Assembly (NCBI RefSeq): GCF_003334765.1
Contig: NZ_QOWT01000017.1
Strand: one strand, 5' to 3'
DNA: 64,000 nucleotides
Source of the DNA: Escherichia coli
GTDB lineage: Bacteria; Pseudomonadota; Gammaproteobacteria; Enterobacterales; Enterobacteriaceae
Part shown: in pieces, positions 4,883 through 10,466 of the stretch
How the letters are laid out: each line of letters opens with the position of its first letter
Position numbering within the stretch: the stretch's first letter is position 1
The notes under the pieces: model-generated
The model's input: the letters and a program-made list of their open reading frames with translations, nothing else
Told to the model about the DNA's origin: nothing
Database searches by the model: none
Program-made: the position numbers and the translations under genes

Positions 4883-5752
4883 TCAAAACAAATCGTTTAG
4901 CATAACCCCCACACCGACACGGGTCTGGTTGAAGTTATAGTCGATGAGCGATTCGCCATAGCCGCTGTAAACCTGAGTATAAAGGCGCACATGTTTGGTG
5001 ATCGGGTAACTTAAGCCTAACTCCGCGCCGCCGTAGCCGGTGTTCCAGTTGTACTGTCCTTTCGCACTGAGCACCGCATCACCGAGGTGATAGCCGATTT
5101 TAAGCTGGTAGTAACCCATATATTTGGTGATATCCGGGTTATCGTCAGTATTACCCACCACATACCACGGCTTCACTTCTACCAGCCAGTTACCGTTTTC
5201 TGCCATCAGGCGAGTATAAAGGCGGTTCCAGCTGCGGGAGGTCGGGTCGGAACGCCCGTTAGAGTCGTGGTTATACCCCATCTCCACATCGCGCAGCGTC
5301 CAACCTGCAAAACGGTAATCGGTGGCAAAACCGAGGAACAATTGCGGTTCGTAGTTGGTTTCACGAAACGGTGAAGACTCTTCGCTATTGGACAGTTGCC
5401 ACCAGGATTTTTGCGTATAAGACGCACCCAACACCGAGTTCGGGCCTAAAATCCCACGCCACAGCGGAAATGCCAGGCTCAACTGAAACTTTACTTCATC
5501 CTTACGCGCATTTTCCGCCCAGTCGTAACTGGCAATCGCTTCTTTATTCAGATCGCTGGTTTGGGTGTAAATGAGGTAGTTGGTGTCATAAGGATAGAGC
5601 GTGAACGGATTGTCATGCTCCTGCAGCATATTGGCGATAATACTGCCACGCACCGCTGGCGCGTCATGCACCTCTTTCACCGTTGCCTCTTGTGCATATA
5701 CTGCCATAGGCAACATAAACACCGGCAACAACCAGCCCTGCAGAGTCCGCAT
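4883..5752 (-). CDS. pldA: Outer membrane phospholipase A
   Basis: 289 aa with signal peptide MRTLQGWLLPVFMLPMAVYA and beta-barrel C-terminal F; upstream of recQ as in the pldA-recQ arrangement. Confidence 0.93.
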   Translation of the reverse strand: MRTLQGWLLPVFMLPMAVYAQEATVKEVHDAPAVRGSIIANMLQEHDNPFTLYPYDTNYLIYTQTSDLNKEAIASYDWAENARKDEVKFQLSLAFPLWRGILGPNSVLGASYTQKSWWQLSNSEESSPFRETNYEPQLFLGFATDYRFAGWTLRDVEMGYNHDSNGRSDPTSRSWNRLYTRLMAENGNWLVEVKPWYVVGNTDDNPDITKYMGYYQLKIGYHLGDAVLSAKGQYNWNTGYGGAELGLSYPITKHVRLYTQVYSGYGESLIDYNFNQTRVGVGVMLNDLF

Positions 5753-6435: not shown

Positions 6436-7326
6436 ATGGATGCAAAACAAACGCGGCAGGGCGTATTACTCGCTCTTGCCGCTTATTTTATTTGGGGTAT
6501 AGCGCCAGCGTACTTCAAGTTGATTTACTACGTGCCCGCCGATGAAATCCTGACGCATCGCGTGATCTGGTCGTTTTTCTTTATGGTGGTGCTGATGAGC
6601 ATTTGCCGCCAGTGGTCCTATTTAAAAACGCTGATTCAGACGCCACAGAAAATTTTTATGCTGGCAGTCTCTGCCGTGCTGATTGGTGGCAACTGGCTAC
6701 TGTTTATCTGGGCGGTGAACAATCACCATATGCTGGAAGCGAGCCTTGGTTACTTTATTAACCCGCTGGTGAACATTGTGCTGGGGATGATTTTCCTCGG
6801 CGAGCGATTCCGCCGGATGCAATGGCTGGCGGTGATTCTGGCGATATGTGGCGTGTTAGTCCAGCTGTGGACTTTTGGTTCGCTACCTATTATCGCGCTG
6901 GGACTGGCATTTAGTTTTGCCTTCTACGGTCTGGTACGCAAGAAGATTGCCGTTGAAGCGCAAACCGGCATGTTAATCGAAACCATGTGGCTGCTGCCCG
7001 TGGCGGCAATTTACCTGTTTGCTATTGCCGACAGCTCAACCAGCCATATGGGGCAAAACCCGATGTCGCTGAATTTACTGCTGATCGCCGCCGGTATTGT
7101 CACTACCGTACCGCTGTTGTGTTTTACCGCCGCTGCCACGCGCTTGCGTCTCTCAACGTTAGGCTTTTTCCAGTACATTGGCCCGACGCTGATGTTCCTG
7201 CTGGCTGTGACGTTTTATGGTGAAAAACCGGGTGCCGATAAGATGGTGACTTTCGCCTTTATTTGGGTGGCGCTGGCAATTTTTGTGATGGATGCGATTT
7301 ATACGCAGCGTAGAACGTCCAAATAA
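6436..7326 (+). CDS. rarD: DMT-superfamily inner membrane transporter RarD
   Basis: 296 aa polytopic membrane protein; conserved position. Confidence 0.9.
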   Translation: MDAKQTRQGVLLALAAYFIWGIAPAYFKLIYYVPADEILTHRVIWSFFFMVVLMSICRQWSYLKTLIQTPQKIFMLAVSAVLIGGNWLLFIWAVNNHHMLEASLGYFINPLVNIVLGMIFLGERFRRMQWLAVILAICGVLVQLWTFGSLPIIALGLAFSFAFYGLVRKKIAVEAQTGMLIETMWLLPVAAIYLFAIADSSTSHMGQNPMSLNLLLIAAGIVTTVPLLCFTAAATRLRLSTLGFFQYIGPTLMFLLAVTFYGEKPGADKMVTFAFIWVALAIFVMDAIYTQRRTSK

Positions 7327-7420
7327 AAAATAAATATATTCTGAAAAAATATGCCGACTCTTGCATGAGAGTGGGCATATTGCCATGCTGACCGGAGACT
7401 CATACAAGGATGTAAAATTT

Positions 7421-7801
7421 ATGTTACGTATATTTATCCCAACATCTAACGGTAAGATTTCCAGACGTCGTTATATATTTTCATTTATTTTAATAAATTT
7501 CATTTTTGCCTTTCTTATTATCTTTTTTAACGATGGAGAAGCAGGCTTTCTTGTTATAGTCTCTACCATCGTACTCCATTATCTCGTCATCAACATGAAT
7601 TGCCAGCGACTCCGTGATAGTGGTTTCATCTATATAAAAACTTATGTTTTTGGTACATTAGCAGTATATATCATCTCTATCATCACAATGATAGCCGAAG
7701 ATTTTGCCTGTTCAGGCAATGGTTCGATGATTTTTTTGATTTGTTATTTTTCCACTTTCAGTATGCTAATGCTTGCACCTACTGATTCATCAAAACAATA
7801 G
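7421..7801 (+). CDS. yigG: Small inner membrane protein of unknown function
   Basis: 126 aa hydrophobic ORF from ATG 7421 in a markedly AT-rich segment; upstream TTG extension in the ORF track not favoured. Confidence 0.7.
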
Positions 7802-7814
7802 TTATGGAGTATTT

Positions 7815-8195
7815 ATGAGTAAGGAATATATGAACGATGGTTCATTAAGTGAAAAATGGAAATACCGATTTAATTTTTATGATCAACATGGTTTTCCTGG
7901 ATTCTGGGGGGCAACACCAGAATATAAAGCAGCATTTAAAGCATTAAAAGTAAGACAACGCTTAACTATTCAAATGAATTTCATTGCTTTCTTCTGTTCC
8001 TGGATATATTTATTTGTCCTGGGGTTATGGAAAAAAGCAATTATAGTTCTATTACTTGGTATTCTATCTCTATTTGTTGGTGCACTAATTGGCGTTAACA
8101 TTCTGGGAATTGCCGTAGCAGCCTATGTTGCTGTTAACACGAACAAATGGTTCTATGAGAAAGAGGTAAAAGGGTTAAATACCTGGAGCCTTTGA
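7815..8195 (+). CDS. yigF: Small inner membrane protein of unknown function
   Basis: 126 aa from ATG 7815 with GGAG Shine-Dalgarno at 7806-7809; two predicted TM helices; AT-rich. Confidence 0.75.
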   Translation: MSKEYMNDGSLSEKWKYRFNFYDQHGFPGFWGATPEYKAAFKALKVRQRLTIQMNFIAFFCSWIYLFVLGLWKKAIIVLLLGILSLFVGALIGVNILGIAVAAYVAVNTNKWFYEKEVKGLNTWSL

Positions 8196-8201
8196 ATAAC
8201 A

Positions 8202-8239
8202 GGTGGCTTAGCCAGACTAAGCCACCGCTCTCGTTTTTT
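8202..8239 (+). terminator. Intrinsic terminator hairpin at yigF/corA convergent junction
   Basis: ggtggcttag / ctaagccacc stem followed by gctctcgtttttt; the T-run overlaps the corA stop codon. Confidence 0.6.
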
Positions 8240-9188
8240 ACAACCAGTTCTTCCGCTTAAAGTACAGATACGGTGCCAGGCCCGCGAGGATCATAAAGAT
8301 AATCGCGCCAGGGTAGCCGAAGCTCCACTTCAGTTCTGGCATAAACTCAAAGTTCATGCCATAGCTGGAAGCAACGAGCGTCGGCGGCAGGAATACCACG
8401 GATACCACCGAGAAGATTTTGATGATGCGGTTCTGCTCGATGTTGATAAAACCCATTGCCGCCTGCATCAGGAAGTTCACCTTCTGGAACAGGGATTCGT
8501 TATGCGGCAGCAGGGATTCGATATCTCGCAGGATTTCACGCGCCTGCTCCAGTTGCCCACCCGGTAAACGCGCTTTACGCACCAGGAAGTTGAGCGCGCG
8601 CTGGGTATCCATCAGACACAGGCGAACTTTCCAGCCGATATCTTCCAGTTCCGCCAGAGTGGAGAGCGCCTCGTCGTACTCATCGCCCTGATGCCCTTCC
8701 ATAATCACCCGGCTCAACTGCTCCAGGTCGCTATAGATATTTTCAATTTCATCTGCCAACTGTTCGATTTTGGTTTCGAACAGATCCAGCAGCAACTCGT
8801 AGGCGTTACCGTCTACCATCGACTGGCTACGGGCACGCATACGATACAGACGAAAAGCGGGCAGTTCACGCTCACGCAGAGTAAACAGACGACCATCACG
8901 GATGGTAAATGCCACAGTGGAGTTACCGGCGTGATCTTCCGCATCTTCAAAGAAGAAGAAGGAGTGAATATGCAGGCCGTCGTCGTCTTCAAAGAAACGT
9001 GCCGATGCTTCGATGTCTTCCAGTTCCGGGCGGGTTGCCAGGCTCTGGCCAAGTTCAGATTGTACGCGCAGTCGCTCGTCGTCGTCCGGTTCGACAAGAT
9101 CAATCCATACTGCATTTACAAGGGGTTGTGACTCTTCGACTTCCAGCCGGGTCAGTCGGTTATTTTCCAGTTGAAATGCGCTCAGCAT
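8238..9188 (-). CDS. corA: Mg2+/Co2+/Ni2+ transport protein CorA
   Basis: 316 aa from ATG (complement 9186-9188) [12 protein letters not shown]...; C-terminal [10 protein letters not shown] signature with two TM helices. Confidence 0.95.
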
Positions 9189-9557
9189 GACCGGGACTCC
9201 CAATGCTTAAAATATCGGACAGTTCGGTGGGCACACAGAAACAAATTGGGTTTCAGACCATTAAACAGCCTGACTCAGCGCGACGGGAAAAATTGAGGTC
9301 GCTGACAACCGCTAAGGCTATCAGCAAAAAGGGATAGCCTTAGGAGTTGATCCTGGATGACAGGATAGTGAGCCAGTATCTACTGGGTGTGTCCAAGGCG
9401 AATGTCCTCTTAGAGTGATCGTGCGCGCATGTTACGCCAGCAAAATTTTGCCGTCAACACGCAACAGAACACCACAGAACAATAGTTGAACTTCGCGCTT
9501 TTTGGTACTCGTCAAGGTCGCTAACAGGATAAAAAAATCCCACATCCAGGACCTATA

Positions 9558-10322
9558 ATGGCGCATCAGCTACTCATTGGTAAAGGAATGATCACCTTGA
9601 ATCTCAAACGGATTTTTCTCGCCCTCACCTTACTTCCCTTGTTTGCTGTTGCCGCTGATGATTGCGCACTCTCAGATCCGACGCTGACCGTACAGGCGTA
9701 TACCGTTAATCCTCAAACAGAGCGGGTGAAAATGTACTGGCAAAAAGCCAATGGCGAAGCGTGGGGAACGTTACATGCTCTGCTGGCGGATATTAATAGT
9801 CAGGGTCAGGTGCAGATGGCGATGAACGGCGGCATCTATGATGAAAGCTATGCGCCGCTCGGTTTGTACATCGAAAACGGTCAGCAGAAGGTGGCGTTAA
9901 ATCTCGCTTCAGGTGAAGGGAATTTCTTTATCCGTCCTGGCGGCGTGTTTTATGTCGCGGGAGATAAAGTCGGCATCGTTCGTCTGGATGCCTTCAAAAC
10001 CAGTAAAGAGATTCAGTTTGCGGTGCAGTCAGGGCCAATGTTGATGGAAAACGGTGTAATTAATCCGCGTATTCATCCCAACGTCGCCTCAAGCAAAATT
10101 CGTAACGGTGTTGGGATTAATAAACATGGGAACGCCGTGTTTTTGTTGAGCCAGCAGGCAACAAATTTTTATGATTTTGCCTGTTATGCCAAAGCGAAAC
10201 TGAACGTTGAGCAGCTGCTTTATCTTGATGGCACGATTTCACATATGTATATGAAAGGCGGGGCAATCCCGTGGCAACGCTATCCTTTTGTCACCATGAT
10301 TTCCGTCGAGCGGAAAGGTTAA
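9558..10322 (+). CDS. yigE: Secreted/periplasmic protein of unknown function
   Basis: 254 aa with N-terminal signal-like hydrophobic segment; function not inferable from sequence. Confidence 0.8.
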   Translation: MAHQLLIGKGMITLNLKRIFLALTLLPLFAVAADDCALSDPTLTVQAYTVNPQTERVKMYWQKANGEAWGTLHALLADINSQGQVQMAMNGGIYDESYAPLGLYIENGQQKVALNLASGEGNFFIRPGGVFYVAGDKVGIVRLDAFKTSKEIQFAVQSGPMLMENGVINPRIHPNVASSKIRNGVGINKHGNAVFLLSQQATNFYDFACYAKAKLNVEQLLYLDGTISHMYMKGGAIPWQRYPFVTMISVERKG

Positions 10323-10361
10323 AACGATAGTTTTGTGTCAGATACTGAAGATGGCGCAGAT

Positions 10362-10466
10362 GCCGGATGCGGCGTAAACGCCCTATCCGGCCTACATGAC
10401 GTTGCAATTTATTGAATCTGAATGATTTTTTAGGCCAAATAAGGTGCGCAGCACCGCATCCGGCAA
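10362..10466. repeat. BIME/RIP-type element: two inverted REPs flanking a conserved core
   Basis: gccggatgcggcgtaaacgccctatccggcctaca ... tgcaatttattgaat ... gtgcgcagcaccgcatccggca; the same 15-mer core recurs at 26352-26366. Confidence 0.7.

Follow-up and report, generated by a model that had tools for sequence, protein, structure and literature searches.

Here we describe the gap between rarD and corA in a 64,000-nucleotide stretch of the Escherichia coli chromosome (contig NZ_QOWT01000017.1; "the window" below), which is filled by an AT-rich islet carrying two small genes, yigG and yigF. In each genus examined, the pair is inherited in the same form, tightly spaced, on the same strand and AT-rich, and its divergence greatly exceeds that of RarD and CorA in the same loci. 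We propose that yigG and yigF form an operon silenced by H-NS, which persists as old alleles and encodes an accessory module of the cell envelope. Taken as a whole, this account has about an even chance of being right. Its structural, regulatory and evolutionary parts are held with high confidence, and the suggestion that YigG and YigF act as a pair in an accessory envelope module is a tentative one, which we place somewhat below even chances.

The segment runs in the order pldA, yigI, rarD, yigG, yigF, corA, yigE, uvrD, and its central features are the following.

6436–7326, plus strand: rarD, which is conserved and flanks the gap on the left, with its stop at 7326
7327–8237, no strand: the AT-rich islet, filling the gap from the rarD stop to the corA stop and recognised by composition and a drop in identity
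7421–7801, plus strand: yigG, coding for an inner-membrane protein of 126 aa, predicted to have four transmembrane helices
7815–8195, plus strand: yigF, coding for a 126-aa DUF2628 protein
stop codon at 8238, minus strand: corA, convergent with yigF

Composition of the islet and its two proteins

The GC content of 7327–8237 is 0.347 versus 0.523 for the whole window, which is the lowest value of all 911-bp windows (mean 0.524, standard deviation 0.035; about five standard deviations below), and 300-bp windows dip to 0.32–0.37 solely between 7201 and 8250. At the third codon positions (GC3), yigG has 0.31 and yigF 0.29, versus 0.596 ± 0.049 (minimum 0.46) for 48 long open reading frames (ORFs) of the window; since GC3 itself is low, the contrast is not due to the hydrophobic amino-acid content. 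An index like the codon adaptation index, derived from genes of the window itself, is 0.522 for yigG and 0.513 for yigF, which is under all 44 reference genes (0.681 ± 0.048, minimum 0.542). The islet thus stands clearly apart from the other genes of the window, as a first-pass annotation made from the letters alone had stated, and the two hydrophobic proteins of about 126 residues described there are encoded by two ORFs on the same strand, each exactly 126 aa long, and both are strongly hydrophobic. The AT-rich string which it quoted occurs once, at 7481–7528. No flanking direct repeats of note and no integrase, insertion sequence (IS) or mobility genes were found in the window's islet.

In the genomes 100% identical to the window, RefSeq annotates the genes as yigG and yigF. 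The start of yigF lies 13 nt past the yigG stop on the same strand, and from this spacing we conclude that the two genes form an operon.

YigG scores 255.6 bits in the NCBIfam model NF008474 (PRK11371, the YigG equivalog; cut-off 217), and the YigG of the second E. coli allele described below scores 210.4 bits, slightly under this cut-off. The match to Pfam DUF805 (PF05656) is weak: E = 0.023 for this K-12-type copy, which is below threshold, and among 12 members of the YigG family four have E <= 0.001 and ten have E <= 0.1, the best being 5.8e-5. The AlphaFold2 (AF2) model of YigG (pLDDT 85) consists of four long helices, for which Foldseek against AFDB50 returned homologues in Escherichia, Salmonella, Atlantibacter, Intestinirhabdus, Pseudescherichia, Phytobacter, Kosakonia and Mangrovibacter. 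Nearly all remoter fold matches are DUF805 proteins (probability 0.8–0.99, TM 0.45–0.68), but their E-values are 0.7–6. In a collection of 1.84 billion proteins, the YigG-family profile finds just 30 cluster representatives, and it does not reach the mainstream DUF805 members there at E <= 0.001. Since the DUF805 match is sub-threshold and the family profile finds so few proteins, YigG appears to be a small, fast-evolving enterobacterial offshoot of DUF805, i.e., a divergent branch related to this family.

Like the DUF805 proteins of the E. coli YhaH/YhaI type, YigG is small and polytopic, with a basic N-terminal "SRRxY" and an "RLRD(S/T)G" loop; its conserved motifs include ISRRRY and E93..C97.G.G. 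According to the positive-inside rule, both termini would lie inside (N-in/C-in), the loop with QRLRDSG would be cytoplasmic and the loop with E93..C97.G.G periplasmic. As for the gene start, the mechanical ORF of yigG reaches 20 codons further upstream, to a TTG at 7361, and older gene models begin 12 codons upstream, with an ATG at 7385 (the NCBIfam profile has 138 positions, and there are 138-aa entries from E. albertii); conservation across genera starts only near the annotated start at 7421. YigG-like genes have 121–136 codons where the start is clear.

YigF possesses a polar, helical N-terminal part of about 50 residues (WKYRFxFYDQHGFPGFW), followed by a hydrophobic C-terminal half with the motifs NFIAFFxSWIYLFVLGLWKKAI and NTNKWFYEKEVKG. 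Residues 17–117 match Pfam DUF2628 (PF10947) with E = 5.2e-10 (model positions 9–91 of 93), in accordance with the RefSeq product name "DUF2628 domain-containing protein", and the AF2 model (pLDDT 88, pTM 0.81) is helical in both halves. W15, R18, F19, G26, N55, L69-G-L-W-K73, N110, Y114 and W124 are invariant with the homologues from Pseudomonas and Chromobacterium. The enterobacterial members of DUF2628 are AT-rich, lie in the rarD–corA gap and have a YigG-like gene ahead, whereas the distant members are single genes of normal GC content in ordinary contexts. The length of yigF is 126 codons in Escherichia, Superficieibacter and Atlantibacter and 130 in more distant copies. That YigG and YigF could be paralogues was considered and rejected: BLASTP gives no alignment, and the hhalign probability is 0.15%. 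Judged by their sequences, they are two unrelated proteins, both predicted to be small, polytopic and located in the inner membrane.

Two hairpins lie at the ends of the islet.

7348–7381, plus strand: an inverted repeat just 3' of rarD, with 14-nt arms, 93% complementary, and no U-tract
8202–8226, both strands: a GC-rich hairpin with 10-nt arms, 100% complementary, terminator-like either way

The first (−20 kcal/mol, z = −4.75) probably forms the structure at the 3' end of the rarD transcript; it is included in the 84-nt stub after rarD, which is kept even in the UTI89-type strains, where yigGF has been lost. The second (z about −4.8 on each strand) is common to the convergent yigF and corA and marks where the diverged islet ends on its right side. 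No Rfam features or antisense RNA were found in 6900–9700. Upstream of corA, there is an 18-codon leader ORF, ysgD/CorL (9340–9396, minus strand; LDTPSRYWLTILSSRINS, with TTG taken as the start), which carries an annotation in related E. coli loci.

The pair in one gap across genera

All YigG-like genes with a readable context are located in the rarD–corA gap, and in every context read except the O157 type of E. coli a DUF2628 gene follows on the same strand, −4 to +35 nt after the YigG-like gene. The conservation of the pair and of the gap refers here to the enterobacterial loci read that have a DUF2628 gene, which come from at least five named genera. The pair occupies the gap in Superficieibacter, Atlantibacter, E. 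whittamii, Kosakonia, one further genome and several metagenome contigs, and in one type of these contigs the gap has in addition received genes for a LacI-family regulator and an enolase-superfamily protein. A scan of genome contigs for exact peptide patterns gave 12 loci only and understates the distribution; the genera were recovered mainly by the fold search and contig look-ups.

In these loci, the identity to K-12 is 38–83% for YigF and 29–48% for YigG, versus 85–89% for RarD and 93–96% for CorA. Where long flanks are available, the GC content of the pair is 0.36–0.45 and that of the flanks is about 0.56. Because the pair occupies the same gap in at least five named genera, the islet is old and not a recent arrival. 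The pair was probably present in the gap already in an ancestor of these genera, and later it would have evolved fast with its AT-richness kept. The first-pass annotation had suggested anciently acquired DNA, and an islet which sits in the same gap in all these genera, is still AT-rich, evolves fast and is dispensable fits this suggestion. As is expected of xenogeneic DNA, the distribution of the pair is patchy in E. coli, and the relationships of its alleles cut across taxonomy.

As a pair, yigG and yigF were not found in any genuine phage or plasmid (50,697 phage records; plasmid matches opened). The tblastn search of the phage records gave two unannotated matches (3.5 and 1.6 kb), each with adjacent YigG-like and YigF-like genes, and these small records are probably host chromosomal fragments. 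The match on a Pantoea plasmid is a stand-alone DUF2628 gene on a megaplasmid, and the 4.9-Mb E. coli "plasmid" records are evidently chromosomes. One Kosakonia record filed as a plasmid is in fact a piece of the chromosome with the order recQ-pldA-yigI-rarD-pair-corA-uvrD, and a non-mobilizable E. coli "plasmid" record of 93.7 kb with adjacent yigG and yigF is probably misfiled host DNA. The misfiled or suspect records bearing the pair are OR851002.1, OR845793.1, NZ_CP019447.1 and NZ_OY843411.1.

Alleles and gap states in E. coli

To describe the variation of the gap within the species, three megablast searches over 5426 complete E. coli genomes were combined. The counts are approximate, and four states of the gap were distinguished.

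K-12-type yigGF: about 2390 genomes (44%)
Second allele of the whole islet, about 79% DNA identity: about 554 genomes (10%)
UTI89 type, with an 84-nt stub after rarD and a 52-nt remnant of yigG: about 996 genomes (18%)
O157 type: about 1465 genomes (27%)

The pair is deleted or replaced in about 45% of the complete E. coli genomes, and it is dispensable. The islet 7327–8237 represents the unit which is diverged, deleted or replaced among the strains. When the window is compared with EcPF7, a strain with the second allele, identity falls to 64–85% only within 7327–8225, and the flanks retain 94–100%. Between the two alleles, the synonymous divergence (dS) is 0.70 and the nonsynonymous divergence (dN) 0.138 in yigG (dN/dS 0.20), and in yigF they are 1.25 and 0.192 (dN/dS 0.15). 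In the same genomes, dS is 0.17 for rarD (99.7% amino-acid identity) and 0.11 for corA, with almost no amino-acid change. Since dS in the islet greatly exceeds that of rarD and corA, the split between the two allele classes long predates the separation of the strains in which they occur. Both ORFs have 126 codons in both alleles, and, because the dN/dS is low and the ORF length is kept, yigG and yigF are protein-coding genes under purifying selection.

The K-12 YigF is 85% identical to that of Salmonella and 83% identical to that of Superficieibacter, but only 70% identical to the second E. coli allele, which in turn is 98% identical to the E. albertii YigF. At the sequence level, the relationships of the islet alleles cut across species and genera. 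The divergence of the two E. coli allele classes exceeds that of K-12 from other genera, and by this measure the classes appear older than the genus. One database YigG protein is a recombinant of both E. coli yigG classes, and the most variable parts of YigG and YigF are the transmembrane segments and one periplasmic loop. We suppose that the islet alleles, as well as the alternative fillings of the gap, are exchanged via homologous recombination in the conserved flanks. In the same comparison with EcPF7, the 3' part of pldA (5327–5526) has 88–91% identity, versus 96–100% in the adjoining 100-bp blocks, and may be a separate recombination tract.

One could regard the islet as foreign DNA that has no function and is decaying, and that the cell tolerates only because H-NS keeps it silent. 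About 45% of E. coli genomes have lost or replaced it, IS1, an internal stop and truncations are met in it, and it has no known phenotype in E. coli K-12, all of which would suit such a remnant. However, dN/dS stays at 0.15–0.20 across dS values of 0.7–1.25 with the ORF length conserved, the motifs and gene order are kept at every locus of the pair in at least five named genera, and the AF2 models are confident. The remnant explanation is therefore disfavoured, and we give it only the slimmest probability. As to the damaged copies themselves, strain AF56 has a yigG pseudogene (internal stop; locus L005, 2595–2975) beside an intact yigF, many truncated forms of the islet exist among E. coli genomes, and in strain MB50 (NZ_CP073949.1) an IS1 element has inserted into the islet.

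The two other states of the gap and the neighbouring cassette involve two segments of the window.

7457–7508, plus strand: the yigG segment that survives in the UTI89 type (locus L001, 3093–3144, 94% match)
8238–8381, minus strand: the 3' end of corA, present once in the window and duplicated as a truncated corA' relic in other strains

The O157-type gap contains a gene for a 104-aa membrane protein divergently oriented to a YigG-like gene of 128 aa, and it has no DUF2628 gene. The 104-aa hydrophobic protein (locus L004, 2412–2726, minus strand) has no Pfam match, and its interpretation as a hidden relative of DUF2628 or YigG was rejected, since it has no similarity to YigF or YigG. The YigG-like ORFs remain unannotated in the RefSeq genomes of O157:H7 (L004, 2927–3313, plus strand, 128 aa) and in Superficieibacter electus (L007, 3621–3986, plus strand, 121 aa), which is why annotation-based surveys of gene presence would miss them.

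In about 2627 genomes (48%), a cassette of a DUF3289 (YPO3983 family) gene and a DUF943 gene adjoins corA. In a published study, the pair was identified as a toxin resembling colicin M together with the cognate immunity protein (PMC11148199). Like yigGF, the cassette consists of two same-strand genes in the rarD–corA gap and is equally AT-rich (0.32 GC); all gap cargoes have 31–37% GC. The sequences of the two gene pairs are nevertheless unrelated, and the cassette is missing from the window; it is not a homologue of yigGF but its neighbour in other strains. There, the corA' relic separates the cassette from the yigGF position: in AF56 and O157, a 145-nt copy of the corA 3' end, annotated as a partial corA, precedes the cassette, the O157 locus (L004, 3338–3481) is 95% identical to 8238–8381 of the window, and the collinearity of the AF56 locus (L005) with the window extends to 8374. 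Atlantibacter has the order rarD-yigG-yigF-corA'-rarD'-DUF3289-DUF943-corA, and in Atlantibacter subterranea (L013, 3432–3907) corA' (88 codons) abuts rarD' (70 codons). We read this corA'/rarD' junction as the signature of a tandem duplication in which the gap was copied as a whole and each copy bears a different cargo. Such a duplication would have let the DUF3289 effector and DUF943 immunity cargo stack beside yigGF. In the UTI89 type, the remaining part of yigG, yigF and the corA' relic are all deleted, and from its sequence this type reads as a deletion derivative of the stacked arrangement. In E. whittamii (L011, 3487–3984), an orphan DUF943 gene without DUF3289 is located directly 3' of yigF.

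Nothing relevant to a prior description of the variable rarD–corA gap was found in the literature. Another variable site lies 2 kb from the islet: a gene of the S-adenosylmethionine (SAM) hydrolase / SAM-dependent halogenase family, of about 0.9 kb, is present between yigE and uvrD in O157 (L004, 7216–8118) and AF56 (L005, 7283 onward), and the window is without it (about 10323–10443), which makes a second presence/absence polymorphism.

Such a surrounding suggests that yigGF itself could be an immunity-type cassette against a strain-variable attack on the envelope, for example by a pore-forming bacteriocin, by a membrane toxin of type VI secretion or contact-dependent inhibition systems, or by phage DNA entry. 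YigG and YigF would then work in the mode of the small polytopic colicin immunity proteins, and the deep alleles would correspond to different specificities. Immunity proteins of pore-forming colicins and superinfection-exclusion proteins resemble YigG and YigF in size, in their inner-membrane location, in the AT-richness of the genes and in strain-variable occurrence. This explanation would also suit the presence/absence polymorphism, the two very old alleles with one of them common to E. albertii, the DUF3289/DUF943 genes in the same gap of about 48% of E. coli and the orphan DUF943 of E. whittamii, the AT-richness of all gap cargoes and the focusing of variability on the transmembrane segments and one periplasmic loop.

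Nevertheless, we consider it unlikely, although it is the strongest rival of the envelope module proposed here. YigG and YigF differ from the colicin immunity and superinfection-exclusion proteins in having no sequence or profile similarity to them, no cognate toxin and no prophage context. Neither protein has a match to the PADLOC-DB defence models at E <= 0.1, to PHROGs, or to a toxin, immunity or toxin-antitoxin family among the Pfam and NCBIfam profiles, and the K-12-type gap has no toxin gene. Selection is purifying overall (dN/dS 0.15–0.20), and by positive-inside reasoning the best-conserved motifs would be cytoplasmic. The related DUF2628 genes elsewhere are single and occur in ordinary contexts, and the adjacency to DUF3289/DUF943 arises from stacking, which need not imply a shared function.

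Silencing and the possible role of the pair

The silencing of the islet by H-NS, assumed in the first-pass annotation, has been published: binding and silence in laboratory culture were documented in three works (PMC3661553, PMC7229825, PMC8282354). In the first of them, yigF-yigG serves as an illustrative "promoter island" of 663 bp, which is dense in promoter-like sites and transcriptionally silent (PMC3661553, Fig 1); it is foreign by two prediction methods and H-NS-bound in all three chromatin immunoprecipitation data sets (Table 1). In the second, yigG is among six horizontally acquired, H-NS-silenced genes which were dissected for intragenic promoters (PMC7229825), and the primers for one fragment can be located in the window.

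7572–7721, plus strand: the "yigG 1.2" fragment of PMC7229825, with primers at 7572–7597 and 7697–7721

This fragment carries an H-NS-repressed intragenic sigma-70 promoter, which requires an AT-tract and the sigma-70 residue R451 (PMC7229825). In the third, based on IPOD-HR, a small extended protein-occupancy domain silences yigF, yigG and rarD, and the transcript level is low (PMC8282354, Fig 7C). In our scan with a strict sigma-70 consensus, the plus strand showed no promoter ahead of yigG, and shuffled sequence gave more sites than the real one; the scan neither confirms nor contradicts the "promoter island", because the latter was defined with a different algorithm. The reading of yigGF as foreign DNA bound by H-NS is correct and already published. 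The islet is similar to H-NS-silenced xenogeneic islets in its AT-richness, H-NS binding, silence and predicted foreignness, but differs from them in being only 0.9 kb long, in having no mobility genes and in its very old residence at one site.

Silencing of this kind might mean that the product is harmful. The first-pass annotation had named toxic small proteins and phage-exclusion factors as candidates, with the reservation that the sequence does not establish such a role, and in its stronger form this idea makes YigG or YigF a toxic membrane protein with a partner, as in toxin-antitoxin systems. Both proteins are small and hydrophobic, their genes are tightly silenced, and promoter islands were proposed to shut off toxic or useless foreign genes (PMC3661553). 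However, an ASKA clone overexpressing yigG survived a growth-based selection in the presence of 0.1 mM isopropyl β-D-1-thiogalactopyranoside (PMC10299036), so that yigG is not grossly toxic. There is no sign of addiction, since yigF is intact in AF56, where yigG is a pseudogene, and both genes have been lost in other strains. Type I toxins are short toxic peptides, usually under 60 aa, accompanied by an antisense RNA. YigG and YigF are larger, having 126 aa, and the four helices are also unlike such toxins; the locus has no antisense or other RNA family, and no match to a toxin-antitoxin family was obtained. We consider a toxin with its partner very improbable. A role in phage exclusion is not supported by any test either: there are no matches in PADLOC and PHROGs, no genuine phage carrier and no RNA partner.

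The proposal of an accessory envelope module comes from Salmonella. Deletion of yigG there resulted in decreased attachment to polystyrene, spinach and tomato and in decreased growth under chlorine, with partial complementation (PMC3579871). The gene is missing from the serovar Enteritidis (PMC3579871), and the presence of yigF varies among the Salmonella Newport isolates. It is because of these deletion data that we propose an effect on the envelope or surface. YigG and YigF would act together in the inner membrane and would be made only once the H-NS silencing is relieved, and their most likely effect would be to alter the envelope or surface properties under stress or on contact with competitors. 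We rank this effect above a toxin, antitoxin or anti-phage role.

Several points weigh against the envelope module. The Salmonella phenotypes are modest and come from a single study in which complementation was incomplete. Both DUF805 and DUF2628 are without known biochemical function, and neither sequence profiles nor Foldseek against the PDB revealed solved-structure relatives of YigG or YigF. The pairing of YigG with DUF2628 is not obligatory, as the O157-type YigG-like gene stands beside the unrelated 104-aa protein, and in Pseudomonas, Chromobacterium and Pantoea DUF2628 occurs as a solitary gene in unrelated surroundings. In addition, all pairs occupy one chromosomal gap, and their adjacency may partly reflect shared descent instead of functional coupling.

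A broader idea, which we consider quite unlikely, is that in Enterobacteriaceae the rarD–corA gap serves as a conserved site of cassette exchange for conflict at the envelope and that YigG-YigF is a new, chromosomally fixed two-component family of membrane immunity or protective proteins. If it were true, the gap would alternate or stack small membrane-protein modules, namely the two yigGF allele classes and the O157-type pair, with a colicin-M-like cassette, and the allele classes would translate into specificities towards membrane toxins or phage entry. The additions made here, i.e., the fixation of the pair to one gap, the two old alleles, the four gap states and the stacking, are comparative leads and not a discovery. 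The age of the islet raises the questions of why AT-richness is maintained over long times and why E. coli carries two allele classes side by side that predate the genus. At the same time, two "y-genes" gain a testable context, being a co-inherited pair in a gap that also houses a cassette for interbacterial competition.

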